Shown one piece after another: positions 1 to 54,503 of a stretch of 64,000 bases of DNA. Below the pieces are notes generated by a model, which was given only the letters and a program-made list of their open reading frames with translations, did not search any database and had not been told where the DNA came from. Within the stretch, counting starts at the first letter, position 1. Each line of letters starts with the position of its first letter. Origin of the DNA: an uncultured Planctomycetia bacterium (GTDB taxonomy: Bacteria; Omnitrophota; Gorgyraeia; 2-02-FULL-51-18). Location of the stretch: the NCBI GenBank assembly GCA_964606485.1, contig CAZSGP010000003.1, positions 66,481 through 130,480 of the forward strand, written 5' to 3'. A program made the translations under genes and the position numbers.

Positions 1-468
1 GCAGCCCTTGTTTTATTTGTAGCCGCTTCGGTTACGGACTATTTGGATGGCTGGGCTGCGCGACGATTTAATCAGGCGAGTGCTTTTGGCGCGCTGATCG
101 ACCCAATTGCCGATAAAGTTTTAACGCTCTCCGCGTTCCTCATTTTTGTTCAAATTGATTTAATTCCGGCATGGATGGCGGTGCTCGTTGCCGCACGTGA
201 TTTTTTAATCACCGGGTTTCGATTTATGATGCCCAAAGAATCGCCTCGCCAAAAAGCCGAACAGGGGGGTAAGAACAAAACCGTTTTGCAATTTGTTGTA
301 ATTATTGGCGTTTTGATTTATTTAATTGCGAGAGAATGTTCTTTTTGGAATTTGTCCTGGGATGAGACCGCTCATACGGTTATTTACTGGACGATGTTCT
401 GTGTGGTTTTTGCGACGCTTTTCACCGGGGTTCGTTATGTGGTCAAAAATAAAGACATTCTCGGTTAA
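1..468 (+). CDS. CDP-alcohol phosphatidyltransferase family protein (PgsA-like), C-terminal part; 5' end lies outside the window
   Basis: Frame 1 is open from nt 1. The translation AALVLFVAASVTDYLDGWAARRFNQASAFGALIDPIADK carries the D-x2-DG-x2-AR...G-x3-D-x3-D signature of CDP-alcohol phosphatidyltransferases. pgpA follows directly, which is a pgsA-pgpA arrangement. Confidence 0.75.
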   Translation, partial: AALVLFVAASVTDYLDGWAARRFNQASAFGALIDPIADKVLTLSAFLIFVQIDLIPAWMAVLVAARDFLITGFRFMMPKESPRQKAEQGGKNKTVLQFVVIIGVLIYLIARECSFWNLSWDETAHTVIYWTMFCVVFATLFTGVRYVVKNKDILG

Positions 469-892
469 GCTGACTGCATCATTTTTCTTTGTTGGTTATT
501 TTCCATTTTGGTCGGGAGCCTTTGGAAGTTTAGCGGGAATTCTCCTTGCCTGGTACTTTCCAGCGGCGCTCATCCCGCAATTTATCGTCTACACCCTTCT
601 TGGATTTCTAGTTTGCGCCCCCTCAGAAAAAGCATTTGGCAAAAAAGACCCCTCTAAATTTGTGATGGATGAGGTGAGCGGTATGATGCTCACGGTTTTA
701 TTTGTGCCGCATGACCCTGTCCTTTACGTGGCGGGGTATGTGTTATTCCGAATTTTTGATGTCTGGAAGCCGTGGTTGATCAGGCGCATTCAAAATAGCG
801 GGACCCCGAGCTCCATTATGTGGGATGATTTAGCGGCTGGCCTCGTGTCCAATCTGCTGCTCCAAGCCTATCTGTTATTGCCTCTGAAATAA
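437..892 (+). CDS. pgpA: phosphatidylglycerophosphatase A
   Basis: KLTASFFFVGYFPFWSGAFGSLAGILLAWYF...MDEVSGMMLTVLFVP...FDVWKPW matches the PgpA family. The track ORF opens at 326, but the first in-frame ATG after the upstream stop context is 437, and it overlaps the previous gene by 32 nt. Confidence 0.75.
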   Translation: MWSKIKTFSVKLTASFFFVGYFPFWSGAFGSLAGILLAWYFPAALIPQFIVYTLLGFLVCAPSEKAFGKKDPSKFVMDEVSGMMLTVLFVPHDPVLYVAGYVLFRIFDVWKPWLIRRIQNSGTPSSIMWDDLAAGLVSNLLLQAYLLLPLK

Positions 893-960
893 TTGGTTAA
901 TTCTGTCAATAGATATTAACTAGCGCTAGGCAATTTTTTTTCATTTCCCCCTAGAATTTT

Positions 961-991
961 TTGGAACTGTCGGGCATACTCTCCCTACAAT
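961..991 (+). promoter_or_regulatory. putative sigma70-type promoter of the giant ORF (TTGGAA -35, TACAAT -10 at 986-991)
   Basis: TTGGAA at 961-966 and TACAAT at 986-991 are separated by a 19-nt spacer, and the start codon follows 17 nt downstream at 1008. A perfect 10-bp palindrome CTAGCGCTAG sits upstream at 920-929. Confidence 0.3.
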
Positions 992-1007
992 AACCAAAGC
1001 CCAAACT

Positions 1008-1115
1008 ATGCCCAATAAGAAAAATGTTTTTAAATTCTGTACAACTAGACTTATTCAAACCATTTCTTACGGACTGGTTTTATGTTTGCTTGTCCAGGAT
1101 TTGGCCTGGGCCGCG
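1008..1115 (+). other. N-terminal Sec-type signal peptide or signal anchor of the giant protein
   Basis: MPNKKNVFKFCTTRLIQTISYGLVLCLLVQDLAWA|AP has a basic n-region, a ~15-aa hydrophobic core and an AxA-like AWA motif. Confidence 0.5.
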
Positions 1116-4100
1116 CCTGATTTAAAGTTAGGAGTTAAAGGTAAAGAGCAAAGTCTTAAGTGGGCTAAGACGCTTCTTCCCGAATTGCCAGAGTCGATTG
1201 TTAAGCTCGACGACGCTTGGAGGGGGACAGGGGGGTCCGGCCCCTCTGGCACCGTCATCTTAATCCAAGACGCCCATGCGAACCCTTCGGGGCAAATGAA
1301 TCTTGCGAAGACGTTGGACCTCATCTTTAGTCATGGTGGGGAGGGTGCTCAGGTTTTTCTTGAAGCCGGTTTCGGAGACGATTCTCTTTCCTTTTTAAGA
1401 AATCATGGCTCATTGTCCGAGCGCAAGCGAATCGCCTATAAATATTTATCTAAAGGTCTTCTAAACGGAGAAGAGTACTTGGATCTTACAAGCTCTCACA
1501 ACTTCGCTTTGTGGGGCGTGGAAGATAAGGGTCTTTATCTCAAGGCCCTTAAAAATTATAAGGTCGTAGCTCAAGACCGGTCTAAGTTCAAAGACTATCT
1601 CTCAAAGATTCAAACGACACTAGACATTCTAAAGCCGAGACTGTTAAATCCCGTTCTCTATAAGCTCGACCAAGATCGACAAAGCTATCTTAAAGATAAT
1701 CTTTCGCTTACGGATTATGCGGATACTTTACTTCGCGGAAATGACAGGAAGCGATACCCTAACCTTCAAAAAATAAGCTCTCTCAAGAGCTTAGAGCAAA
1801 GACTCTCCCAACAAAATATTTCACCCCAACACCAAAAGAGAATTGTCGAGCGACTACTTAAGCGCTCTAAGTCTCTGGATTATAAATCGATCCTTGAAGA
1901 AGTGAGGCGTTTGGAGAGCGATGCGTTTCAAGCGCTCACCCTGAATGCCGACGAACAAGCGCTTCTGGATGGTCAACGCTCGCTTGAATTCCTAAAGAAA
2001 CTTTTAAATCTAACCCTAACCCCGGAAGAATATGAAGAATACAAAAGCATTCGTCATCCTGAGCGCAGCGAAGGATCTTCTCTAAGCGAATCATCTAGAA
2101 AAGATTCTTCGGCCAGCGGGCCTCAGAATGACCCTGTAGCGCGTCTAACCGGTTTTCTCAATCAGAATATTATGATGCTCGGAAGCTACTACGAGCGAGC
2201 GCTTTTCCTGGAACCCGGATTTGACTCTATCGTGGCGAACGCCGAAAGTTTTTATGGCCTCACTCTTCAGAGAGACGAGGCCTTCGTCCAGAATATGTTA
2301 AAGAAATCGCCTCGAGCCCTTAGTATTTTAATAGCGGGTGGCTACCACACTCCTAATCTCAAGCGACTCTTGAGAGAAAAAAATATCGCTTATATCGTGC
2401 TGACTCCGCAAGTGACGCGGGAAACAAGCATCGCTAAGTATGAAAAGATTCTCTTAAATCAAAATCTCTTAACCCTAAACCCCGCGACTCTTAATATCAC
2501 TCAAAGCCACATGAGAATAGCTCCTCAAAGAAATATTGCGGGGAGCCGGCTGGTGGCAGAGGTGAAAGACTTGAACGAAACATTCAAGGAGGTTCTGCGT
2601 GATCGCAAAGAAGAGATTCGGGAAGCTAAAACTAGGATAGACGATAATTTGGCGGCCGAAATGATCGGTCAAATGCGAAGTGTTGTTGAAATTTTAGTGA
2701 AATCTCACCAGCTCGAAGCTGGAGGATTGATTGAAGAGAAGCTTGGCCGATTAAAAGAGTTAAAAAATTTAAACTCGAACGCAAAGGAGCAGATTGCACA
2801 ACTTTATGTTTTTTTGAAACGGCATTTTAGCTTGTCCCGTTTTCAGAGTTTTGTCACCGAACACGCTTTGCTTCCCGAGCAAAAAATTTCACCCTCAGTT
2901 GAACGCTACGGGTTAAATCTTGGCGATTATGCGGCGCGGTATACGAAAGCGATGAAAGTAAGTGGGATAAAAAAATTCAGCGGCGTGTACCGTGGAGAGT
3001 TGGCCGTGGTTTCTGGTTATCATTCGCTGATCAGCATCGAAGATCTGGACCGGCTTTCCGAGACGCTGGCCCGCAAAGGCTATGGTTTTGTTTTTGAGGA
3101 TGGCCTAACCTTTTCCCGGGCGGTGAATCCAAAAACTGAAAGTCCTGTAGAACTGCTTCAAATTCCCGTAACGGACTCCGAAACCGGGAAGACGATTACC
3201 CGGGTCGAGCTTGTTCTTTATGACAAGCCCGACGTTGAAGAGGAGCTTGGAAAGTACACCACGGCGATTCGCCAAAGACTTTATCCCCACCAATACTACA
3301 GAGAGACGATTCATCATCCCGATCTAAAAAGACATCAGGTGGATTTCGAGAAAAGTATTTCTGAAATCGCCAAAAGACACGGAATTAACGGACGGTTGAG
3401 TGACGATAAAATCAAAAAAATGGAGCTTTCCATCGCTCTGTCGCTGGTGGCCGAAACATTGTTTTTGAAATTGCCAAAGTCTCTGCAAAAGGAAGCCGAA
3501 GAGCTGGGTATACGCTCCGGTGGAGCGTATCCGGGCTTAGTCCATTTGCATAGCTCTATGAGAACCGCCGTGGAAACTCTTGCGAATCATGAAAAATCAG
3601 AAAAACTCATGAGCATAGACGTTGATAAGCGGACCGCAGAACAAATTGCTGATCTTAATGCGCTAGAGCAGAAACTGTCGCTCGAGAGCCAGAAAAATTT
3701 AGCGGGAAAAAACGCTTTTGTGGATAATTTCCCGCTTTTTATTTTAGACGACCATCTTTTTAAGGATATGGGGGAGCGACAACAAGAAGAATGGAAAGCC
3801 TTTTTTAGAAAAGTAGCCAAGTATTATGCTCAGATGCAATCGGATTATGAGAACATTTGGTCGGAAGATTCAACCAATCCGGCAGCGGCCATTATTGAGC
3901 CGAATGCAGTGTCGATTAATCTTTTACCTGGAAGAACAGAGGCGCAAATTTTGCGCGCACTCAAACAGAGTCATTCGCAAGAAGTATTTAGCCAAAGCGT
4001 TGATCTGGATGCAGACTGTCAATTATTTTTAAATGACATCCCCAAAATCATCACCCACAAAGGACTAGCGGAGATCAAGTTGCTACTCGTTGGCATGAAG

Positions 4101-7100
4101 CCTATTCTCCTTAGAGCAGAAAAGCGAGAGCTCTTTAAACGACTGGAAAAAGAAGTTGAGGGTGTTGAGGCACGTATACGCGCGATAGAGCGCTCGATTG
4201 GAGCAAGACTTTCAGAAGAACCCAAAGGCGCTTCTGTTGTTTGGACGCATGCCAAAGAGATGATGGACGCTATTCAAAAAAGTCCAATCGCACACAGCGG
4301 AAGAGATCAGATTAAACAATTAGCCAAAGATCTTAAAACGATCCCCAGTAAAGCGGAGGAAATTCGAAGGGAAACTAGAGAGTTGTCCGGAAAAATTCAG
4401 TTTAATAACGGAGCCGCCGAGAGATTTGATGAAATTTTGAATTCATCGCTCAAGAATGGAGAAGAAAGAGAGCAATTGGCGCGGCTTTATTGGTATCTCG
4501 ACCAAATGTTCACCGTTCGGGAAGCGCCAACAGTTCGCGTTCAGATTCAGTCCACTCAAAAGCAGTTTGGAAAGTATGCGCTGGATTATTATTTGGAATA
4601 TTTAAAAGAGGGAAATCCACAGGATGCCGCCGCGCTTAAAAGCAGGATAGCTGGAGCGGGATCTTATGCTCGGGAGGGGGTGGGCGTGACTGGTGACTCC
4701 GAAGATTTGCTTAACGATGATGAAGTTCAAAAAGCATCGCGAGTGCTGGATTTTGGAGGACTTGGATTTTTATTCGAAGACGGTCTGACCTTCGCCCGCA
4801 TTCTACCAACGACAACGAGCGCGACGGTAAAATCCTTGTTCATCTATACAAAGAAAAAGGGCGACGCCGCTATCCAAGTCAGGCCCGAGCTTTGGCTGTA
4901 CGCGATGCCGGCAGATCCAGCAACGAAGCTTTTGTTTTTTCAAGACGTCATGGGTGATTTGTATCCGCAGATCGCGCACAGTCCCTTGGTGAAGCGGGTT
5001 TTAGAACAAAAAGAGGCGCGTATTGATGATTATCCGCATCTACCCGGTTTTCTTCCTTCGAAGCTCATCCGCTCTTATTTTGACCTGACAAAGTCAGAAT
5101 CATCCCCTAAGGATTTATTTAAAAGACTGGAAAAGGCAAAAGCGCTTGAACCTCAAGCGCGACAATTAGCTCTTCATGAATTTTACGCTCACATTGGAAA
5201 GGCGCTTTATTTGACCGCAGGAAGCGAGTTTAAGGCTCGTTTCAAAGCAAAGCTTTTTTCGGGGGTTTTGCCGAATGGAGCGATTTATCTTAAAAACTAC
5301 GGGGCACAGCTTAAGAAGTACTACGCGCTCGTGGAGTCTGGCCGGGCCGATTATTGGTCGGAGCAATTGGCGGAGGATGAGCTTGCGGAGAATTTCTTCG
5401 GGGACGTCTTTGCATTTTATTGTTTAAACCAGCTTTTAAAAATACGCTCAATTTACCAGATGAGTGACGAAGACAGTTCTGTGGAATTGACGGTGTTTGT
5501 TAAAGAGTTTGTGGAAAGTCTTAAAGAAAAACATGCTCGAGGTTTGAATGCTTGGCAAATAGAGGATGAGGATGCCGCTAAGAAGATCGAATCGGTTCAG
5601 GCGATCATTCAAGAGCCCAATTGGGTCGGCAGCCCGAAGCATCTTTCAGACGAAACGACAGAGCCTTCTACGCTGAGAGCAGTTGCCAGTCATTTTATTC
5701 GCGAAACGGTTACAGAAGCTAAGAAGCTCTTTGAGAACCCCAATAGAACGGAAAATCAATTGGCGTGGATGATCGAAGGGTTGAGTATTGCCATAAGGGA
5801 TTTTACCCCCTTACTTGAAGATCGTAAGACGACTCGGCTAGCATCTTTAATTTTGGTCCTACCGGTTTACGCGAGGGCACTTTTTTACAGAGGAGATTAT
5901 TCCCAAATGCTCCGGTTTATACAATTAAACCTGCATTATTTGGCCCATTATCTGGAATCGATTGAAGAGAAAAATCTTGCTCAGGCAAATTTTGCGGTAA
6001 GCGTTCACGGGGATTTGCGTAGAACCGTTACCGACGCTATGGCTTTTTTGATCGTAAACGGAAAATACGAATTTGTAAAACCCCTGCAAGAGGCGCTCGA
6101 TAAACTGCGGTCACTCAAGCTCCCAGAGGGCGCTCGTTTAGCGGATTTAAAAGCCTCTTATATTGAATACATAAAAAGGAACAGCGAAGAAATAGACGCC
6201 GCCGTGCTTTACGTGAAGGATCCTTCAAAAGCGCTCAAAATCCAAGCGGAGTTAAGCTCGGCAATTGGTATCCTGAAAGGCGGATTTAAAGTAAAAGCGG
6301 GGGACTTTGTTGACGAGAAATTCTTAAAACTCGCCGGTCTTAAGGAATTTAACCGCTCTCAAAAGGAGCAGTTGGTCTGCCTCTATCTATTTATCAGGGA
6401 TGAATTCAAATACCCTAATTTAATTTCCTTTATCAGTAAGCCCGTGATTACTCCGGAGTCTAAAATTTCAGAATCCATGGAGCGGTACGGCATTCGAGCA
6501 AAGGATTATTATTTGCGTTATGCCAAAAATAAAATGGATACCGAAAATTTTGCCGATCATGAAGGGTTTCTAGATCAATTCATTGGTGTTTTTCGAGCAG
6601 AAGATGAGCGGGTGAGCGGGTACGAGCCTGTGATTACCAGAGAGGATCTGGATGCTCTTTCCGAGATCCTTGCGAAAAGAGGTTTTGGTTTTGTTTTTGA
6701 GGATGGACTCACCTATTCACGGACCATTAATCCTAATGCGTTGGGGCCTGTTCAAATGGTGAATCTGCCTATCAAAGACACCGTGTCCGGAAAGATCGTG
6801 GTCCGGCCTGAAATTGTTCTTTTTGATCGACCGCTCAGCGGCTCCGAGAAGATCAAGCTGTTTGATCGCCAGATGATAGAGTGGCTTTATCCGGACCTGG
6901 CTTTCTCAAGCGTATTTGGAGATCGTTTTCTTGGGCCGCACCAACAGAGCATTGAAGCGTGTATCGCGGCCATTCGCAAGTCCGGTCGAAACACCACCAT
7001 GGATGACGAGAAAATCAAAGGCGCCGCACAACTTGTGTTGTTGTCGATTATTTTTGACTCCCTGTACGAGCGCTTACCCGAAAATTTTATTGCCCGTATT

Positions 7101-10100
7101 GCCAGGATTGCGGCCACCAACAATGTAACGACTCCCGGACCCGCCTACTTAAGAATAATCGGCCGGCACGGAGTGGATGTTATTAATGATAGAAATGAGC
7201 GTGATTCACTTGGTGCTAAAGCGCCCGATCAAAGAACTCCGGATGAGAATCAGAAGATCGATGATCTGAGTTACAGCATCTCCAAGGAATCTATTAAAAG
7301 ACGGATTGGAAAAGTTTTCTTCTCTACCTTTGGCCCCTTGTATGTTTTGAATAAAAATATTCTTAGTCGTGATGGAGAGAGAGTGCCCGATGAAGTTAAA
7401 AAATTATTCGAAGATGTGTCTAAGTATTTTATTGGATTACACGATGATTACCACAATATCTGGGAAGTTCCGGAGGTGGACGCTAATAAACTTCTGCTAG
7501 AAGAACCAAATCCCATTTCAGCGACTTTGAAGCCGTACGCCTTGGAGATACAAGCGATCCGCGTGAACGAAGCTGTCGTGAATGACCCGAATTTTAAAGC
7601 ATCCAACCCCGAGAGTCATCGCGACACCGCGAATGCGTTTATCATGGACATGAAACACATTCGAACCGAAGAGGGATTGTCCCGGATGAGAAGCGTCCTG
7701 TTTGATTTGGTGGCGGCTCTTAAAACGGACAAGTTGAAAGATTTGGCCGCTCAAGCTGAAAGCGCCTTTGAAGAGGCTAAGAATAGAGTAGGTTTGGTGA
7801 CCGCCGCACGGCTTAGTATAGAAACTGGCAATCGCAATCAGGAGATTATTGATCTGTCCCGACAGGCTCTGAGAGTTTATGGTCTAAAAAATTTTGCAAC
7901 CATAATGATCGCTTCCGTTTCGGAGTCAACCCCAGCTTTAGACGAAAGCGGCGCACATCAATTAGACTTGCGTGATGCAACTGCTTTTGCAGAGCTTAGT
8001 CGATTCATTCACGAGGATTACAAAAAGGATTATTCTTATCAAGCGTTGTTCCAAAATTGGAAAGATCTGGAAAGTGTGCATCGCGGGGACGATTACAATG
8101 GGGTTTTTAAGACCCCCGCCGCCAAACAGGATGTATTTTCTTACTACATTTTTGGACGCGTAATCGCTGATGATAAAGATTTTGAAATCGCTTTGAATAA
8201 ACACGATGATGAGGACAGAATTCAGCATAGCGCTCATCGCGCCGCTAAAATTTTTACTGCCATCGACAAATTAGCCCGAGAGTCCGGAGGAGTATTTACA
8301 CTGGGCGAACTTCGAAAAGCCGTCTTTACCGATGTGGATTCAAAATATTTTGATCTGGATCTGGAGCTCATCGACCGCGCGGTACAAATTGCGACGGGTA
8401 GTTTTGAAGAAGGCGCTCGCCTCTCCTGCGAATACATGGAGATGCAAAGAATGGAATTCCTAGGGCGCATTGAAGAAAATGAGACTCGCCGGAAAAAATT
8501 GGCCGACGAACTGACTAAAAAAGCCAAGGCGTATGCGGATGAAATGGAGCGAATCCTCCAAGAGGCCAATTCGAAATTAAAATCTATTCCCAATTCGGAA
8601 GAAATTGTCCACGAAATCGTGCCAGTTATCAAAAAAACATTGAATGACGTGCTCACAAACCCCGCACTGGCGGACCCGGCCAAGTTTGAGCAGGCACTCG
8701 CAACTAACCTAGTCGACGGCATGAAAAACGGCCATCACGCGGGCATTGCAGGGGCGTTGGGGGCGGATTCTCTCAAAGATATCCAAGAGCTGCTTAGCAC
8801 AACCAAGCTAGCCGATGGGAAAAATTTTGTGCAAGCCGTCATGGACTGGCAGGAACAAAATCAAATCTTAACCAAGCTCAAAAAATACGCTGAATCAACA
8901 CTGGTTGAAGGGGTGAGTGTTCCGGAGCTTAAGAAAAAGCAAGGCTTTAAACCCGGTCAAACGGGGCAAGCGTCTGGCGCGCGATTGGCCGCTAAACAGG
9001 AAGTTGATTTTATTGATACGCTCAAAGAATTAAGTGACGACGAAAAGAAGCTTCTTAAGGAGCACTTTGTGGATATGGCGAGCCAAGAATCCAAGCCTTT
9101 GATTGGCCGGGCCGACGATGTGCGTAAAGTTGTATCCGCGCTCTCAAAGCCGAGCGGTTTTAAAAATAGCGTTCTTTTGGTCGGAAAAAAGGGCGTTGGT
9201 AAGTCGGCGCTGGTGCGCATGATTGCTAGATCCATTAAAGAAAAGAAAATTCCCGGCCCGCTTGAGCAGAGAAGAATTTATACCTTAAAAAAATCACTGG
9301 GGTCGACTCCAAGCGACATGAATGACGCGCTGGCTAAGCTTCTGCCGATTTTAGAAAAAACAAAAAATAAAATTATTATTTTCATCGACGAATTTCATGT
9401 GCTGACGCGCGGGATCAACAACACTACGGATTTTGCGGTGGCGGATACCTTGAAACCGTATCTTGAAGAGGGCCGCGTTACCATGATTGGTGCGACGACG
9501 ATTGCCGAGTGCAAGCGATTTATCGAGTCGGAGCCGGGCGGGGCATTTAAAGACCGTTTTGTCGAAGTGAGGCTGGAGGAAACAGACGCTGAAACCACCA
9601 AGGATATCTTGGACGGTTTAAAAGATTTTTATGAGGAAGAGTTTGGGATTCCCATTTCCGAAGGTGCCATTGAAATTGCCGTTGAGCTTTCGGAGCGCTT
9701 CTTGCCGGAGAAATCATTTCCCCGAAAAGCCGTTGACCTCTTGGAGAACACGCTGTCGCACGCTTCAAGTCTTGTGGCCCAGCGCAATTTGCAGATCGAC
9801 GATCTGACAAAGCAGTTGGAATTAAAAACTAAACGCTACATCGGCAACAAGAAAAAAGGTAAAAACGGAGACGACCGGGCGACGACCCAGCTTCACAATC
9901 AAATCATCACCTTGACTCAAGGCATTCTGAAGCTAAAAGCGGAGAGAGATGCTTTAAAAATCACCGAACTCAGTGATCAGGATGTCCGGCGCTACCTGGC
10001 CGATACCACCGGAATTGATTTGGCGCATTTGTCGCAAGGGGAGGCCCAGCGGATGCTGGTGGCCGAAGATGTAATTGGTCAAAAAATCATCGGCCAAGAG

Positions 10101-13100
10101 GCTGCGGTGGGTGCTATTTCCAAGGCGATTCGCCGCTCCCGCTCCGGTATGCGCGACCCCAAGCGTCCCATCGGCAGTTTTGTGCTAGCGGGTCCCACCG
10201 GCGTCGGAAAAACGGAGCTAGCCAAGGCTTTGGCCTTGTTTATGTTTGGCGATGAGTCCAAGATGAAACGCCTGGACATGAGCGAATACATGGAAAAGCA
10301 CAATGCTTCTCGAATGATTGGTTCGCCGCCGGGTTATATCGGGTTTGAAGCGGGCGGAGAGCTTACCGAATACGTCAAAAAAAATCCGTACGCGGTGATT
10401 TTATTCGACGAAATTGAAAAAGCTCATCCGGATGTATTTAATACTCTTTTGCAAATTTTGTCGGATGGCCGCCTGACGGACGGTAAAGGCGAAACCGTCG
10501 ATTTTAAAAATACAGTGATTATTCTCACATCTAATGTCGGCATGACTTCCATTGCGGATTATTTCAAAGGCTTCGAGGAATCCATTAAGCACGCTGAAAG
10601 CTCTGAGGGAATTGATCTAGCGATAAAAGGGATGAACGAAAGAATTGCCGAAGCAGTAAAGAAAGGAATTAACGGTGACCCCGCGCGTTTTAAACCGGAA
10701 TTTTTAAACCGCTTGGATGCAGTGATTCCGATGAGCATCTTGTCGCCTGAAAACGTAAAAGGTATTGCTCGTATCAAAGTGGATAAGGAAATCAGGGCCC
10801 GGCTCGAGAGCGAAAAATGGAGTGTCACTATTTTGCCGGAAGTTCACGAGCTCGTTGCAAAAGAGGGTTACGACCCCGTTTTCGGTGCCCGTCCGCTTAA
10901 CCGCGCCATTGACCGCATGATTTTAGATCCTTTAAGCACTCAAGTCTTGATGACGAAAGCTAAAGAGGGAGAAGAAGCGTCCGGAAACATCGTGATTTCA
11001 GCGATTGGCAAAGAAATTCATTTTAAAATTGATTTAAAGAAACAAGGTGTGATTCAAACCCTGCCTTATCCTGAGGAGCAAAAAGCCATTTATGAAGCAC
11101 TGTTTCAAGAAATCAATAACACTCTCGACAGTGCTGATAGCGCGCTTACGGAAGAAACGCTTAAAAAAATCCTTAAAGTTGATGATAGGGCCGGTGTTTT
11201 AAGCTCCCAAAGCGCCGACTACGGCGTTTACAAGCATAATCAGCCGCTCGCATTTGAAGCAGAAAAAGATAAATCAAAGCGCTCCAATCACAATGCTCCC
11301 AGTAAGGATTCGGGGGTTTTGAAAGCTCAGGAACTCATTTTAGCCGCACTGCAGAGCGAGCCTAAGGTAAACGCAGTAATGAAATTTATTCAATTATTTT
11401 CAAAATGGGCCAAAGAAAATAATGTCGACGCCGAGTTTATCAATCTGGAATGGACTGTTAAAGATAAGAAGCTCCTGATTCGCATTAAAAAAGCCGATAA
11501 AAATGTGATTAAAGATGACGAAGCGAAGACTCTAGTCGAATTCCTTCAGCATAATCCCAAAACCCAAGAAGAGGCTGACGAGATAGCCCGTAAAATTGCC
11601 GAAGAAAAAGGGATTACGGGCGGACAAGCCCTTTTGCGTCTCAAGGCGGCGTTTATTGCGCTCGGAGGAGAATCGACGTTTGGAACATTTGAAAACACTT
11701 ATTGGGCAAGCATTGTGTTAGATGAAGATCTTCAAAAGATGGCGGACGAGTCAAAGCTTAAAGCCGAGACAGCCTATAAGCTGAAGTTGTTGGAGGCATT
11801 ATTTGATTCTCTCCCTGAGCGGTCTATGAGTGATGATCCCAAAAAAACCAATCTCCCGATGGATCGATTTAAATTTTCTATTACCGATGAATTGTGTGGG
11901 TATAAAGGTTATAAAGCGCGCAAACCGTCCGAATCAGATCAAAATAATAAAACAGTTCTTATTTTAGTGAATCCAAAAACAGCGAACTGGAAAATATTTT
12001 TTCAGGATTTCCGATTATATTTAGATGAGTACTACCCCTATTACATGGCCCGCTATTCGGCTTTGGTCGAAAAACTTCAATTTGGAAAACTTGAAGAGCG
12101 GGAGTCGGTTGTTGTCGCGGCAGGTGCGACGGACCAAACTGTCAAAAATCAAGGGGTAGCACCGAAGTCTATTCCTCAGGAATACACGGACATGCTAAAA
12201 AACATTAATGATTTGTACCAATATTTTCCAACTAACATAGCGATTCGGCTTAAGGACAAGCCTCTAGTTGCGGCCATTGTGCTTTATCACGCCTTATTTA
12301 AAAATGATGAGCTTGAGTCTTTTATGAATCTCTGCGTAAATCAGCAAATCGATGAATTTAAAAGGCAGTTAAATGGTTTGCCGGTTATACTAAGTTTGAT
12401 TAATAGATACGATGCTACCAGTATTGAGAGCGGATCCTTGATAGCCCCTGGAGTTCTCCCGCAAATCTGCTTTGTCTCGGGCCTGGAGGAGGATGAGCGT
12501 GGTTCGTATAGAAGATTTTTCTTAGGAAGAACCGCTACAAAATTCTATTCAGGTGATAGTTCGGATTTGGCAACTCAATCAAAATTAGTTATCAACGTTT
12601 CTGAATTAAATGAGCTTCGCGAGAATCTAAAAAAAGCAAAGATCACCAGCCTCCAACGGTCGGCAGCGAAGAGCTCCTCATCTAAAGAATTAAGTAGTGT
12701 GTCCCCGGAATCTGCGGAATCTACCAAGGCCCAAGGAAAACTTTCAAGAAAAACTGTTGCAGAGCTGTTTAGACAGTTTGCCGATCAGGTTAATATCCGT
12801 GGGCCTATCGACAATGAATGTTTTGTCGAATTTAATAGGTCCAACTCGAATGAATTCGTCTTAGAAAAATATACCCAGCGCCGTCAGCAAAGGGCGCGCA
12901 TAAAAATCCAGTCGGAGAAGGGACGAATCCGGAAATTAGAAATTACGCTGTGGCCCGCAGATAAAGGACCTGTAAGAGCGCTTTATATCAACAGAGCCGT
13001 CAATCTAATCCTAGATGTTGTTTTTTTAGGTAAAACACAAGAAGTAATCGTGGTGGTTGATGATAGGGAGCTTGTTGGATTTTTAAGTGCCTATGAATCC

Positions 13101-16100
13101 AATGCAGATAAATCCGATGAATCCATGGAGACTTTAAACACTCGCGTGATCGCCAAATCCGACGCTTTGAAGCGCGCTCAGGAAGATCCTGATTTCGCTA
13201 AGGCATTGAAGTGGAGGAATAAAAAATCTGCTGCACCATCTAACCCACTCGAAGGAGATGTTAAAGCTATTCTTGAGCAAGCGCGTCAGGCCAATGAAAA
13301 TGAGTCGGGCGATCTTAGTGCTGTGAGGGGCGCCGACAATGAACTTGCCATTCGAGCCGAGGATTTTTCTTTGCTGACGACAAAGGATTTCGAAGAAATT
13401 TTAGATAGAGCTTTTTTAGTAGAAGAATCGACGCTTTCAGCTCGTGCTATCCGTTTGACGATAGGCGATTGGGCTAGAAGAAAAAACCAACTAGTTTATT
13501 TGCGCGAGCAGGAAGAGGGGGATGATTCAGTATCGGTATTCGAGCTAAAAATTGGGCAAGCGATCCAGGCGAGCGAATTGATGAAGTGGCTACTGGAGCA
13601 GGACCTTCCGACGGATAACCCCGAAGTCCAGGCCGCTTGGGGAAAAGCTAAAATTAAAATCCGCCGTTTGGCGATAGAGAAGATTACAGGAAGGCAGTCT
13701 GCCGCTTCGGCTCAAGATGTCAAAAATCAAGGACTGACACCGAATGCACCGAATGAATTTAAAGCGCAAGTCCTTCAAAGAGCGTTGGCGAATGTGCGCA
13801 ATAAAAATATTCGCCGCTTCAAGGGTGGAGCCGTAACCAAGGCGTCGGAATCTGAATCTACATTGGTTCTTTTAGACTTCCCCCAAGACGACGCTGATTA
13901 CGATCCCGATCTATTCAGTCCTAGAGTCGCTTCGAAACTGCACCCGGCGGCCATGGAGCTTGCTCGGGAGATTGTCGAGTATCTGAATGGACAGTCGGGC
14001 AACAAGCGCAAAGCCTATGTGAATCAAGACGTTGAGACCGTTTTTGAAGGGGATGTTGAGATTGAGAATGTCTCTGCCGTGGGCATTTCCTTTGAGCGAA
14101 TGACGCAAACTCTAGAAGAAGCCCAGGCTGGCACTGTCGAGCTTTTGCGCGTTGTCGAAGAGTTCCTATTAAAAAAACAAGCTTCGCTTTCAAGTGTCGG
14201 CGATAAATTAAGTAAGGTGTCCCCGGAATCTGCTACTTCAGGTTGGCAATTATTGAATCGTGAGGGGACTGAATATATCAAAATTTCTGTCCCAAAAAAT
14301 TTGGAAGATAGGTTGCTAGGGAAGCCGCTTTTACAAAAGCTAGTTTATCTTTTAGCAGTTGAAGATCTTGTGCAAGCGAAAGATTTTATAAAATCGAATC
14401 TTTCCAAAATTTTAGCAGAAATAAAGAAATTAAATGTCGGGGAAGGACGACTCTGGGCTACAGCCCCGTCCGGAACTGTATTGATTAACGATGGAGCGCC
14501 TACGGAAGGTGCGCTGATTATTCGATTGGAAGAATTTGAAACTACTTTCACAGAATCGAAACAGGAGAGTGCGCAGGTTATATTTAATTACCCTTTATTT
14601 GAAACTGACGTATATTTTAACGCCGATGAAAAAAACGGAAAAAATCTTCGGGAGGTTGGCGCGATAAAAACTCCTTTTGACCAGAGTCCTGTTTTGTGTT
14701 ATCCCGAAGAAATGATTGAGCTTCGCCGTAATCTGGAAGCGCAGAAAGCGAATTCGGGGGACACGAAACCTAATTCTGCAAAAGGCACGGGCGAATTAAG
14801 TAAGGTGTCCCCGGGTTCTAAAGAAAAAGAAAAAAATGTTTCTCAGTGGCAAAAATTTGTGGAAGAGTTGAAGACTAGCGAATCTGCCGCCCCCATCCCC
14901 CCAGCCTCGGCGGACAAGTCAGCTCAAACTGTCAAAAATCAAGCACTGACACCGAATATAACTAAAATTATCTCCCAGTTAGAATCTAAATTAAGTGATG
15001 ACAATTGGGCTGTCTGTCTAGCCGCCGCCACAGCACTCGGACCTATCTACCAAGCTCTCTTCACTCAAGGTAAGATGTCCTTAGAAACCCTAGAATCTAA
15101 ATTAAGAGATAACAATTGGGCTGTCCGTCAAGCCGCCGCCATAGCACTCGGACCTATCTACCAAACTCTCATCACTCAAGGCAAAAAAGTCTCCTTAGAA
15201 ACCTTAGAATCTAAATTAAGCGATTACGAGCGGGATGCCGCCGCCACAGTACTTGGATTTATCTACCAAACTCTCATCACTCAAGGCAAAAAAGTCTTTT
15301 TAAAAACCCTAGAATCTAAATTAATGGATCGCGATGGGACTGTCCGTCGAGCCTCCGTCACAGCACTCGGATCCATCTACCAAACTCTCTTCACTGAAGG
15401 CAAGATATCCTTAGAAACCCTAGATTCTAAATTAATGGATCGCAATGGGACTGTCCGTCAAGCCGCCGCCACAGCACTCGGACCTATCTACCAAGCTCTC
15501 TTCACTCAAGGTAAGATGTCCTTAGAAACCCTAGAATCTAAATTAAGAGATAACAATTGGGCTGTCCGTCAAGCCGCCGCCATAGCACTCGGACCTATCT
15601 ACCAAACTCTCATCACTCAAGGCAAAAAAGTCTCCCTAAAAACCCTAGAATCTAAATTAAGTGATGGCACTTGGACTGTCCAACAAGCCGCCGTCATAGC
15701 ACTCGGACCTATCTACCAAACTCTCTTCACTCAAGGCAAGATGTCCTTAAAAACCCTAGATTCTAAATTAATGGATCGCAATGGGACTGTCCGTCAAGCC
15801 TCCGTCATAGCACTCGGACCTATCTACCAAACTCTCTTCACTGAAGGCAAGATATCCTTAGAAGCCCTAGAATCTAAATTAAGTGATGACGATGAGGCTG
15901 TCCGCCAAGCCGCCGTCACGGCCTTGGGATCTGTCGCGCTATCAATGATTGTAGCGCAGGAGGCAAAACCCGCCGCGCCCGTCCCCACAGCCTCTGCGGA
16001 CAAGAAGGCTCAAAATATCAAAAGAGAATTAAAAAGCGCGTCCCCGAAATCAAAACTTCAAGAGGAGATGGAAGTGGTTGGCGAATATATTCAAAAGCTA

Positions 16101-18974
16101 CGGACAAATTCAGTAGAAGTGAAACCTGATCGCGCATCACAAGTTTCCATCACCCCAAAAACACAACAAGAGTTTGTGGATCAGCTAAAAGCCAGTGTGA
16201 TGAGCGACCCTAGGCTGGGCGAGGTGGAGGATGAACCCACGATTAGCGTTTCTAATGGGGTTGTGACCGTTCAAAAAGAAGTGGCGGGTAACTTCGATGA
16301 GATTCTCGATAGGCAAATGAAAGTGGCTTATGACGAGGGGGGAATTGTCACAGAAGTTGAGGTTGAGGACGTAAATTTATTTAATCCAAGGGATTGGACT
16401 GAGGGCAATGTTATTGATGTTGGTTTCCTTGCCGAGGGTCAGTGTTTGGTTGTAGTGGTTAAAGATGAGTCGCTCAGGTATTTCATGGATGAATTTCAGG
16501 ACGATATTACAGCGATAGCGAATTTAGGATTCAACTACGAAATAATCTCTCTTTCAGAAGCCATTCGAAGATGCGAAGAGCTTGGCTCAATTTTCAAGTT
16601 TACCGATATTACGAATTCAGACGACACAAAACCTAAGTCTGGGGTCGGCAAAGAATTAAGTAATGTGTCCCTGGAATCTGCAGTAAATTCCGTGCCTACG
16701 GTTTTCCGGCGACCAAATAATGTAGAGCTTGAGAGCGCGCAAGAAGCAGTTAGATTACTCAAAGCGCTAATCCAGTCAGGCACTTTTATTCGCATTGCGT
16801 ATCGATTTATGGATGGAGATGAAGATGTTTCCCGTAGCGTGATCAAGGTGAAAAATGACCAGGACAAATGGCTGCTGGTTCAATACAAGCCGGACCAGGA
16901 TCGCGACGGCTGGCAGCTATTTGATTTGGAAAAAATTTATCAAGACGGCGGATTTATGTACTGGAGCGCAACTTCGCAAGGATTGATCATTTCCAATACA
17001 AGAGACTATTTAGACGACTACCAAAACATAGTCCCTAGAGTATCGTCAGAAATTGCATTGGCTGATTATAAAGGTCTGCGTGCTAACTCAGGGGACACGA
17101 AACCTAATTCTGCAAAAGGCACGGGCGAATTAAGTAAGGTGTTCCCGGGTTCTACTGAGAAGGCGCGGGAATGGCTTGATAAAATTGATACTTGGTTGGT
17201 GCAGACTGAGAACTCAGATCAGATCGATCAATCGATTCGATATGTGGTGGAAGAAGATTCGATTATTAGTATGGGGTTCGGACTGGGTTTTAATGCAGGA
17301 ATGACAATGCCTCGAGTGTTCTCCATAGCCGTCAATTTTGAAAAGGTGAATTGGGAGCAATTATTTAGCGCGATCGAAGACCATGTTTTAGATGAGTATG
17401 GAGACAAAGCAGCTTTTAATTGGCGGAAATTTGTAGAAGAGCTGAAGTCATCCACCGGCGCACGGCTTTCCGAGGAAGAAGAAAAGGTTCGAAAAATTAA
17501 TTTAGCCGGCCAAGCCCCGCGGACAATGGGCCTCAAAAACTTTGCTAGCCTCATGATTTTACCGCTCTATCATGCGGAGCTTGCTCCAGAAGGCGAGATT
17601 ACGGGAGACAAAATTCATAAGGCATATGCGCGGGATTTTGCCTACGAAACTATTTATGACCGGTGGAAGGGCTCGGAGCTGATGCACGGCAATGACGATT
17701 ACAATCGAGCGCTTCCCAGCAAAGAAGAAAAAAGAAAAATGCTGTCTTATTATCTTTTTGGGAAATTTATCATCGGAGAAAAAGGTCTGGAGGCCGCTCT
17801 AAACTACAGAGACCGCGAGAGTGAAATCGAATACAGTGCCATGGTTGCTCCTAAAATTTTCAAGGCGATTGCCGATCTTACGCAGGATCGAGCGGGGAGC
17901 TTTACGATAAATGATGTTCGCAAACGACTTGTCGCTCAAAAAGAAGACGGGGAGCATTTCGAGTTGTACTTAACCCTGATTGACCGGGCAGTGGATATTG
18001 CGGAAAACCGGTTTGAGGAAAACGGTGCGCGGTTGGCTCAGGTCTATGTTCGATTCGCGGCGAGCGTGTATCAAGCACAGAAAAAAGACGGTGAGATCGC
18101 GGTGGGACAACACCGCTTTGAAATTCAGTTTAACGCTAAAAGTGGAGAGCTTCTTCTTATTGATAAGCGTTCCGGAAATTTTGAAAAAATTCCAATGAGA
18201 AATCCGGCGCTGTGGAATCCAAAATCAGGCGAGTTTCAAGTAGAGGCGTCGTTAGCGGATCTTCAGATAGCGCTGCATGCGGCTCAACGCGGAAATCGAT
18301 TTGTGATGGAGAGTTTACCGGCCGAAATATTAAATTCTTCTACAAAGACCTTGATTGAGCTCGGGGTGGATCATTTGCTGGCGGACCCTTCTCAGAGACC
18401 GCTTCTTGCGGCGGCGCTTAAAAGAATTTCCGATTCGCCACTCGCTAAAAATTCTAAAATTGTTTTAAAGTCTATCGGTAATGATATTCGGGTGAGTGAG
18501 CTTCTGGAAAATATCCCCAATAAAGACAAATGGATTGTTGGCTCGTACGAGGAGCTCGATCCGGAATATCGTTTGAACGCGCAGAGAGTCCAGGTGGGAG
18601 AGCTGGGTTGTAACGATGGGTTGCTTATTAAAAACGTCCGCTTTTTGCCGACCCAAAAAGCAACAAGCGGCGATATTTTTAATTACGAAGGTGTCCTTCA
18701 GGCAGCCCTTTTAGAAGGAAAAATTTCATCAGATGTTTTAAAAAATGCGACCCATTCGGAGTCCCAAGCCCTTATTCACGCATTTGAAGAGCTGCTTGGA
18801 CGAACGATTCCTCTCGAGCAATACGGCGCGTTTATCCAGGTGATTACGGGCGTTGAAAAAGTCGATCCCAAAGCGGCACTGGCTTTCACTGTGGCTGCGG
18901 CGTTTCATTTGAAGATCCAACAGAGAGTGGCCGGCGCGCGTCTAGCGCGTTTGATGGCCGAGCGGGCCGCTTAA
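1008..18974 (+). CDS. giant multidomain protein (5,988 aa): signal peptide, three paralogous modules, embedded ClpB/ClpC-like double AAA+ ATPase, HEAT-like repeat array; overall function unknown
   Basis: A single uninterrupted ORF of 17,967 nt. An open frame this long cannot arise by chance, and internal conserved domains confirm the frame throughout. Confidence 0.9.
   Translation: [5988 protein letters not shown]
1240..2400 (+). other. possible TraB/GumN/Tiki-superfamily-like region of the giant protein
   Basis: [13 protein letters not shown] near the start and [26 protein letters not shown] near the end resemble the GTxH...GxxHL...G(Y/F)xV motif pair of the TraB/GumN family, separated by ~360 aa. 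This is a motif-level match only. Confidence 0.25.
2770..8000 (+). repeat. three tandem paralogous protein modules (A1 ~2770-4450, A2 ~4450-6340, A3 ~6340-7870) inside the giant ORF
   Basis: Each module holds ...QLY(V/W/L)(F/Y)L...ERYG(L/I)...DYY(L/A)(R/E)Y...[14 protein letters not shown] at 3079-3110, [13 protein letters not shown] at 4760-4790 and [14 protein letters not shown] at 6681-6712, and further on KYYA...DYxNIWSE...EPN. DNA identity is only local: 20 nt are identical at 3085 and 6687. Confidence 0.6.
7870..8430 (+). repeat. module B, copy 1 (GLKNFA...DDYN...SYYIFG...LIDRAVQIA...FEEGARL)
   Basis: Paralogous to 17525-18040, where the same ordered motif string reads [10 protein letters not shown]...DDYN...SYYLFG...LIDRAVDIA...FEENGARL. 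Confidence 0.55.
9000..10950 (+). other. embedded Hsp100 (ClpB/ClpC-type) tandem AAA+ ATPase unit within the giant protein (aa ~2665-3315)
   Basis: D1 reads [11 protein letters not shown]...[10 protein letters not shown] (Walker A, 9183-9212)...IIFIDEFHV (Walker B)...IGATT...DRF. The short coiled-coil linker is followed by D2, [48 protein letters not shown] (10192-10221)...[17 protein letters not shown]...[46 protein letters not shown]...GARPLNRAI, which is about 70% identical to ClpB D2 by eye. Confidence 0.85.
14979..15935 (+). repeat. 9 tandem HEAT/PBS-lyase-like repeats (37-40 aa each; LESKL-D--W-VRQAAA-ALGPIYQ-L-TQGK-SLET)
   Basis: Tandem 111-120-nt coding repeats. The block 15020-15192 recurs almost exactly at 15461-15633, an offset of 441 nt spanning four units. 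Confidence 0.7.
17525..18040 (+). repeat. module B, copy 2
   Basis: See the first module B copy at 7870-8430. Confidence 0.55.
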
Positions 18975-54468: not shown

Positions 54469-54503
54469 ACGTCATCCTGAGCGAAGCGAAGGATCTTTTC
54501 TAA

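Follow-up and report, generated by a model that had tools for sequence, protein, structure and literature searches.

Does a short peptide that recurs along a giant bacterial protein mark the places where that protein is cut or jointed, or does it have another origin? The question is raised by a 64,000-nt stretch from an uncultured bacterium placed by GTDB in the Omnitrophota (contig CAZSGP010000003.1 of assembly GCA_964606485.1, positions 66,481 to 130,480; hereafter the window), in which one open reading frame (ORF) of 5,988 codons repeats the peptide ELSKVSPES and close variants of it. A sequence-only reading of the window had considered flexible linkers, recognition sites for processing of a polyprotein, and recombination scars of module shuffling. 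Our analysis indicates that the copies are very likely in-frame relics of the REP/REPIN type, that is, of repetitive extragenic palindromic (REP) units and of their hairpin-forming inverted doublets (REPINs), and not a peptide signal. The evidence comprises sequence-family identity, architecture, association with a transposase in other genomes, codon-level conservation and a constraint on the reading frame. While a REP/REPIN repeat inside coding sequence is a known kind of event, unusual features here are the near-invariance of the unit across phyla, the crowding of five to six copies into 4.5 kb of a single orphan giant gene, the chimeric arms in the long copies and the orientation of the singlets. 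On this reading, what looked like a tempting processing or linker signal of a giant orphan protein is in fact mobile DNA that has been translated, and a rule for similar cases would be to compare codon identity among the copies and to look for the nucleotide motif outside genes elsewhere.

Motif copies in the giant gene

All ELSKVSPES copies lie within the giant ORF. Expectation (E) values were obtained with a profile of copies from other genomes, described below.

1008–18974, forward strand: giant ORF, 5,988 codons (5,988 aa), containing all copies
12686–12713, forward strand: REP singlet 1, reading KELSSVSPES with codons from 12687; E 1.3e-8
14204–14231, forward strand: REP singlet 2, reading DKLSKVSPES with codons from 14205; E 2.2e-9
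14751–14817, forward strand: REPIN-like inverted pair 1, each arm of which aligns with the corresponding arm of REPINs in other genomes
16617–16679, forward strand: REPIN-like inverted pair 3, more decayed, its left arm reading NSDDTKPKS
17085–17151, forward strand: REPIN-like inverted pair 2, with a spacer identical to that of pair 1; repeat family D4
16023–16054, forward strand: possible decayed sixth REP copy, reading RELKSASPKS, 72% identical to the reference copy; repeat family D3

The five recurrent sites of the sequence-only reading were confirmed in frame, with coordinates off by a few bases at most. A search with the 25-nt DNA consensus, allowing up to three mismatches, found four of the five against none in 100 shuffles, and the fifth (17130) belongs to repeat family D3. 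Singlet 2 has no mismatch to the cross-phylum consensus TTAAGTAAGGTGTCCCCGGAATCTG. The near-identity reported for two long copies also held at the DNA level, as 14748–14820 and 17082–17154 agree at 69 of 73 nt, with one mismatch in the central 64 nt. What had been missed was the third long copy, at 16617–16679, and the structure of all three. An imperfect inverted repeat (GGGGACAC...GTGTCCCC) makes up the long copy, with the arms GGGGACACGAAACCTAATTC and GAATTAAGTAAGGTGTCCCC on either side of a 16-nt spacer, and the encoded peptide is ANSGDTKPNSAKGTGELSKVSPGS. In pair 1 the left (inverted) arm at 14751–14776 reads NSGDTKPNS, the spacer is TGCAAAAGGCACGGGC, and the right arm at 14792–14817 reads GELSKVSPGS (codons from 14793; E 3.4e-8). 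The right arms of pairs 2 and 3 read GELSKVFPGS (17126–17151, codons from 17127; E 8.1e-7) and KELSNVSLES (16652–16679, codons from 16653; E 7.5e-8), respectively.

Similarity among the three short forward arms extends over ∼32 nt, a local ..GGAATCTGC tail included, and stops there, their further flanks being dissimilar; these arms are separate copies of an element and not parts of a larger duplicated segment. The candidate at 16023–16054 was not significant with the REP profile, and could possibly be a decayed copy fused to a paralogue of a ..ASADK.AQ.. linker.

Conservation at the DNA level

Across the five copies the codons for Leu (TTA), Ser (AGT), Val (GTG), Ser (TCC) and Pro (CCG) are identical, an agreement with a chance probability of ∼1e-12 given the codon usage of the giant gene itself, while the residues that do differ between copies (S/K/N, S/F, P/L, E/G) reflect single-base changes in one nucleotide sequence. 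A second recurrent peptide of the same protein, GARL(S/A), served as an internal control; among its eight copies, five different codons are found for Arg and another five for Leu. The ELSKVSPES motif is conserved as DNA rather than as peptide.

These observations bear on the proposal that the motif is a cleavage signal. Polyprotein cleavage sites, such as the MARTX inter-effector linkers cut by the cysteine protease domain and the junctions of viral polyproteins, are conserved as peptides, vary freely at synonymous positions and have a cognate protease. ELSKVSPES resembles them as a short recurring peptide at the boundaries of unrelated modules in a very large protein; unlike them it has frozen codons, its DNA is of a known repeat type, and no protease domain was found. 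A dedicated protease that recognises ELSKVSPES and cuts the giant protein into modules is, in our judgement, very improbable. It would be in keeping with the position of the copies at apparent module boundaries, in hydrophilic and probably disordered stretches (as judged from very-low-confidence models), and with a general proposal that giant proteins of Omnitrophota are cleaved, at points that are unknown (bioRxiv 10.1101/2023.11.21.568195). Against it stand the identical codons, with variable residues that are mere single-base changes of the repeat, and the finding that the equivalent DNA is mostly non-coding in other genomes. Pfam and PDB sequence searches revealed no peptidase domain in the giant protein, and the ten neighbour genes scanned, up to 28.5 kb, are housekeeping genes (including pgpA, cinA, recA, recX, alaS and the his operon). 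Nor did the collections searched contain an orthologue in which conservation of the motif could be seen; that the motif might occur only in this gene was overturned, as it is present in many genomes, as DNA. The ELS motif is probably a false lead as to whether and where giant proteins of Omnitrophota are cleaved.

The recurrence of one peptide is accounted for by the reading frame. The forward unit has stops in two frames (AAT TAA; ATT AAG TAA), and its sole open frame, GAA TTA AGT AAG GTG TCC CCG GAA, encodes ELSKVSPE; the reverse orientation has two open frames, NSGDTLLN and IPGTPYLI. Within an ORF a copy can persist only where its frame lacks stops, and as the forward orientation offers just one such frame, the same peptide is found at every copy. 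All singlets of the window are in this one-open-frame orientation, and the long peptide arises where the reverse arm (NSGDT..NS), the spacer and the forward arm (ELSKVSPGS) are read straight through. Foreign copies in long open frames show exactly the three peptides ELSKVSPE, NSGDTLLN and IPGTPYLI. An independent case is a DnaE-like gene of Desulfobacterales (locus L106, positions 3–2252, reverse strand; Pfam PHP, DNA_pol3_alpha and finger domains), which carries a perfect in-frame REPIN reading ...REIK-NSGDTLLNSNELSKVSPEF-LAIAQ... within its NTPase domain. The appearance of the same peptide in an unrelated protein supports the frame-constraint explanation.

The stretches that hold the window copies are rich in Ser, Lys and Gly and are predicted to be coil, between blocks of secondary structure. 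Structure models were made for two motif-bearing segments (single-sequence AlphaFold; mean predicted local distance difference test score 37) and serve only for this coil placement. A flexible linker, as earlier proposed, is therefore a plausible consequence of the composition and predicted coil, though not the reason for the invariance.

A repeat family in many genomes

The core of the unit, AATTAAGTAAGGTGTCCCCGGAAT, or in its 19-nt form TTAAGTARKGTGTYCCYGG, was found at no fewer than 119 loci in GTDB contigs (one genome per species), and at least 15 phyla carry the near-invariant unit. The loci are from Desulfobacterota, Omnitrophota, Planctomycetota, Nitrospirota, Elusimicrobiota, groups of the candidate phyla radiation, Acidobacteriota, Bacteroidota, several proteobacterial classes, Chloroflexota, Actinomycetota, Armatimonadota, Spirochaetota and Zixibacteria. 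Since ∼69 matches to the 19-nt pattern are expected at random in 596 Gb, the flanks were checked. Among the matches listed, 113 of 151 have AA on both flanks, 99 of 151 are a single variant out of the 16 allowed, 52 of 151 have an inverted partner arm no more than 110 nt away, and only one or two (e.g. L053) resemble chance. The AA flanks, the single dominant variant and the partner arms argue that the foreign matches are not chance.

The consensus unit is ∼25 nt long, (A)ATTAAGTAAGGTGTCCCCGGAAT(T), with hairpin arm sequences GGGGACACCTTACTTAATTC and GAATTAAGTAAGGTGTCCCC. Profile searches yielded 198 matches (E ≤ 1e-3) in the 119 loci listed, with up to nine separate loci per assembly (e.g. 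DAOVTG01). The stop-free stretch across a foreign copy has a median of 71 codons, which indicates that most foreign copies are intergenic, and there are a few real in-gene cases among the matches listed. Perfect hairpins are formed by canonical inverted pairs (−28 to −38 kcal/mol, z about −14 to −15). The core contains GTAA in 135 of the 151 listed copies and GTAG in 13, the window copy at 12690 having the latter; this tetranucleotide lies inside the doublet stem and not at the foot of a self-folding unit. Rfam contains no matching family (the only hit was a sub-threshold microRNA hairpin, E 0.065), the unit had no match in 2.9 million viral contigs, and its nucleotide sequence was not found in the literature searched.

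At a number of loci (L012, L018, L034, L041, L051, L054, L075 and others) the unit often continues at its 3′ end into partial tandem re-duplications, such as GTGTCCCCGGAATT-GTGTCCCCGGAATT and CCGGAATCCCCCCGGAATCCCCCGGAATCC. One Omnitrophota locus (L087), in which an open frame exceeding 2,666 codons spans a REP, was not used, as the frame looks like the antisense of an opposite-strand gene and a probable start codon is found next to the REP.

Membership of the window copies was assessed with an nhmmer profile built from the 151 foreign copies only, without the window sequence. This profile recovered exactly the five window sites, with E values from 2.2e-9 to 8.1e-7, and gave no further significant match to the 64 kb in either orientation. 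Both arms and the spacer of the three long window copies can be aligned with REPINs of Tharpella, other Desulfobacterota, Thermoleophilia, Cytophagales and Aminicenantes. The left arm of the long copies, GGGGACACGAAACCTAATTC, is that of a natural REP subfamily seen in metagenomes, where its own partner carries a compensating GAATTAAGTTTCGTGTCCCC (L170, L175), and the left arm of pair 1 matches metagenome locus L171 at 26 of 26 nt. The change of LL to KP in the left arm had been considered as an adaptation to the protein context, which was rejected given that the 'GAAAC' arm is a natural subfamily with a compensating partner.

Association with a RAYT-like transposase

Nunvar 2010 is reportedly among the sources for REP elements with REP-associated tyrosine transposases (RAYTs, or TnpA-REP). 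In 20 of the 119 loci listed the unit is accompanied by a RAYT-like gene of ∼220 codons (MARIARAVAPGIPHH...NHIHLIVVP...), for whose proteins the only NCBIfam match was NF047646, REP-associated tyrosine transposase (E 2e-22, 1e-18 and 2e-15). Inverted REP copies stand on both sides of this gene, within 400 nt, at 11 of 15 loci examined, and the RAYT-like partner is 49–90% identical between phyla. The link thus holds for the repeat family in other genomes; for the source genome, a REP population and a RAYT are inferred. Copies proximal to the RAYT-like gene adjoin a TTGACA box ∼40 nt upstream of its ATG (e.g. L077:1174–1940 and L102:5181–5976). A remnant RAYT gene was looked for between the TVKNQ motifs of the giant gene (see below) and the ELS motifs, and a tblastn search with RAYT sequences against the window gave only chance matches.

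The defining features of REP/REPIN systems are short multicopy units, hairpin-forming inverted doublets, a mostly extragenic location and a flanking RAYT gene (Bertels & Rainey 2011, PMC3116915, which set out the REPIN concept, and Di Nocera 2013, PMC3733652). The present family shares these, being a ∼25-nt multicopy unit with hairpin inverted doublets that is mostly extragenic and flanks a Y1/HUH gene in inverted orientation (the 'REPtron' layout). It is also alike in its intragenic forms: intragenic REPs are described as mostly dimers that encode 20–30 residues, often in replication or repair genes (PMC3733652), which compares with the dimer in the DnaE-like gene of L106. Four differences were noted. 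Classical REPIN-RAYT systems are described as lineage-specific, with inheritance that is mainly vertical (PMC5581495), whereas the present unit is near-invariant across at least 15 phyla, so that a cross-phylum REP unit with its RAYT-like partner fits poorly with that picture. Unlike classical REPs, the single present unit does not appear to be a self-palindrome bearing GTAG or CGTC at its foot. The proteins encoded beside it score slightly below the NCBIfam threshold for RAYTs. Finally, the window copies are all intragenic, with decayed hairpins and arms from two subfamilies.

A second precedent is offered by the Rickettsia palindromic elements (RPEs), which, going by the account of Ogata et al. 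2000 given in PMC3733652, occur in frame in protein genes. On that account they too are palindromic repeats that add short peptides in a stop-free frame, the repeated peptide being a by-product of DNA mobility. As far as the same account reaches, RPEs differ from the present unit in sequence, to which they are unrelated, and in length (∼100–150 nt), and the RAYT-like association applies to the present unit only; likewise, the host here is a free-living or episymbiotic member of the Omnitrophota and not an obligate intracellular alphaproteobacterium.

Origin and fate of the copies

In the scenario that we favour, the REP unit would be mobilised elsewhere by a RAYT-like HUH/Y1 tyrosine transposase via single-stranded DNA, and two singlets and three inverted pairs would have entered the existing giant ORF, within 4.5 kb, by transposition or copying. 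Only copies in a stop-free frame would persist there. Each would add 9–23 hydrophilic residues in linker-like stretches between modules, where they would be tolerated; the hairpins would have decayed after entry, and the copies may now be neutral or serve as linker material. The two long copies, having the same chimeric arms and an identical spacer, presumably derive from one master. If so, a giant gene of Omnitrophota can accumulate several in-frame REPs.

A number of points weigh against this reading. The RAYT-like proteins score 79.5, 67.7 and 56.7 bits, below the curated NF047646 cut-off of 80, and no RAYT-like gene was found within the 64-kb window. That a single gene holds all five significant copies, while the other 59 kb are free of them, is unusual for a dispersed element. 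The long window copies combine arms of two subfamilies and are accordingly not intact REPINs, and for this reason they fold weakly (pair 1, −12.3 kcal/mol, z −2.7; pair 2, −8.8, z −1.5; pair 3, −6.5, z −1.2), as decayed pairs. Lastly, entry by transposition or copying is deduced from family membership rather than from an empty site.

The folding results also speak to a function in nucleic acid, by which the hairpins, in DNA or mRNA, would pause transcription or translation, shield the mRNA from exonucleases or bind protein. REPs have been reported elsewhere as RNA or DNA elements (PMC3733652), and the topology of an inverted pair is still recognisable in the three long copies. Nevertheless, with window hairpins hardly stronger than those of shuffled sequence and z values far from the −14 to −15 of canonical pairs, two copies that are singlets with no partner arm and no match in Rfam, we consider such a role improbable.

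Whether the copies were duplicated together with their surroundings can be judged from further repeats of the same gene.

14840–14873, forward strand: WQKFVEELK block, paralogue of 17414–17447 (27 of 34 identical), outside the REP family
17414–17447, forward strand: WRKFVEELK block, with a GARLS motif (17457) directly after it
17155–17413, forward strand: interval separating REPIN 2 from the WRKFVEELK block; the corresponding interval after REPIN 1 is 19 nt, a difference of 240 nt (80 codons)
12129–12167, 13707–13745 and 14919–14957, forward strand: 39-nt repeat D5, copies 74–90% identical to one another

The W(Q/R)KFVEELK block downstream of the two long copies and the insertion of ∼80 aa in the second copy, both reported in the sequence-only reading, were borne out. 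The blocks are more diverged (79%) than the long copies (95%), a difference that suggests that the repeat was copied or homogenised later, or that two events took place. D5 reads (T/D)VKNQ(G/A)(V/L)(A/T)P(K/N), e.g. TVKNQGVAPK, and alternates with the REP copies. It had no matches in metagenome contigs; in the REP-bearing loci its full 29-nt pattern was absent, and a 24-nt core gave one match with four mismatches, at chance level. D5 thereby appears to be private to the giant gene. It was also considered (as TVKNQGLTPN) as a widespread element or a REP read in the wrong frame and was rejected, the REP profile being negative and the ∼67% similarity over 21 nt seen by eye not significant.

These duplications are what would favour an ordinary linker, spread by intragenic duplication, whose resemblance to outside sequences is coincidental: the two long copies with their WxKFVEELK blocks are clearly paralogous, and D5 provides a private repeat of the same gene. 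Such a coincidence is nonetheless scarcely credible when a profile made without the window recovers five sites, with E down to 2e-9, when the arm-spacer-arm layout is common to other genomes and the left arm is matched in metagenomes, and when the three short copies have dissimilar flanks.

A different origin for the same elements has more in its favour. As junction scars, the REPs would mark seams left by recombination between copies or by the fusion of genes with intergenic REPs; the sequence identity of the copies is agreed with our preferred explanation, which differs only on how they came to be there. The copies separate segments that mostly have no similarity to one another and are situated in low-complexity stretches, and the five to six of them are clustered in 4.5 kb of a gene that is a lineage-specific insertion in conserved synteny. 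The third-position GC content (GC3) is uneven along the gene, being host-like in the ClpB-like part (0.535) and lowest in the REP-bearing part (0.41–0.44 at 11.5–16 kb). The segments after singlet 1 and after the decayed 16023 copy have a small domain in common (31% over 59 aa, E 1e-5), placed about equally far along in both, as though the module had been copied along with the repeat, and the unit of REPIN and WxKFVEELK is duplicated. Conversely, the segments have no free-standing homologues (no match among 1.84 billion representatives), so that no donor gene can be named, the contrast of 69/73 for the REPIN with 27/34 for the block fits later copying or homogenisation better than joint duplication, and there is no direct evidence of REP-mediated recombination in the giant gene. 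On balance we find this origin unlikely. The recombination scars of the sequence-only reading stand in so far as the copies are the footprints of a DNA element (REP/REPIN), module shuffling being possible only.

An extension of the junction-scar scenario, by which giant genes of Omnitrophota would grow by accretion at REPs, the hydrophilic, Ser/Pro-rich open frame acting as an in-frame connector, is more doubtful again. If true, adjacent DNA would be absorbed or shuffled into one huge ORF, and the ELSKVSPES and NSGDT..NS peptides would be its seams.

The giant gene and its setting

Turning to the gene that carries the copies, the giant protein has a ClpB-like double AAA+ region (aa ∼2700–3330) and HEAT repeats (aa ∼4650–4990), outside of which Pfam and PDB sequence searches recognised no family; in the PDB search the HEAT repeats were the only match. 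By inspection of the sequence, the N-terminus has a hydrophobic, signal-peptide-like segment. A full phmmer search of the motif-bearing part (aa 3450–4645) against the 1.84 billion representatives gave no homologues, a word-based homologue search of aa 3700–4640 found none, and a search with modules A3-B1 was also empty.

The gene has pgpA on one side and, on the other, a convergent cinA, after which come recA, recX, alaS and the histidine operon. The named relatives of this RecA all belong to Candidatus Omnitrophota, in agreement with a host of that phylum. Three sets of relatives (RecA 87–88% identical, ∼70% nucleotide identity) keep the order miaB-pgsA(-pgpA)-cinA-recA-recX-alaS-hisD, with zero to three small genes in the slot (pgpA | cinA) that corresponds to the 18-kb gene, and tblastn did not find the giant protein in the relatives fetched (L176–L182). 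Judging from this gene order, the giant gene is lineage-specific and occupies a variable slot of an otherwise conserved Omnitrophota synteny block. Its overall GC3 is 0.457, compared with 0.48–0.58 in the neighbour genes.

At 14967–15983 nine HEAT-like repeats stand in tandem, with units of 105–114 nt. Some pairs of them are 100% identical over 46 nt or 89% over 300 nt, indicating probable recent internal duplication or gene conversion, and this stretch is the sole one with negative GC skew within the window.

Other repeated signals

The GARL(S/A) peptide used above as a control occurs, once as AARLS, at eight sites (4200, 6129, 7803, 8412, 8976, 17457, 18024 and 18933), and a GSRLV at ∼2541 resembles it. 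Counted as GARL[SA] it is found seven times against 0.03 expected (2000 shuffles gave at most one), and no other 4-mer of the giant protein occurs as often as GARL. It falls exactly at both ends of internal paralogous modules (aa 517–1071, 1709–2272 and 1113–1325 are related to one another, as are aa 2265–2477 and 5483–5681), and again nine residues before the C-terminus. GARL(S/A) may thus be a peptide-level signal, and would be a better candidate for a junction or cleavage signal than ELSKVSPES.

A second widespread palindromic element, GTCATCCTGAGCG(A/C)AGCGAAGGATC, was noted at 2052–2136 and 54470–54503. In the giant gene it forms an in-frame inverted pair that reads RHPERSEGSSLSESSRKDSSASGPQNDP, and a half copy fills a 35-nt gap between two genes. 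Exact matches to this element were found in 50 IMG/VR contigs, several of them as plus/minus pairs, and copies with one mismatch occur in the hisD-hisB gap of Omnitrophota relatives.

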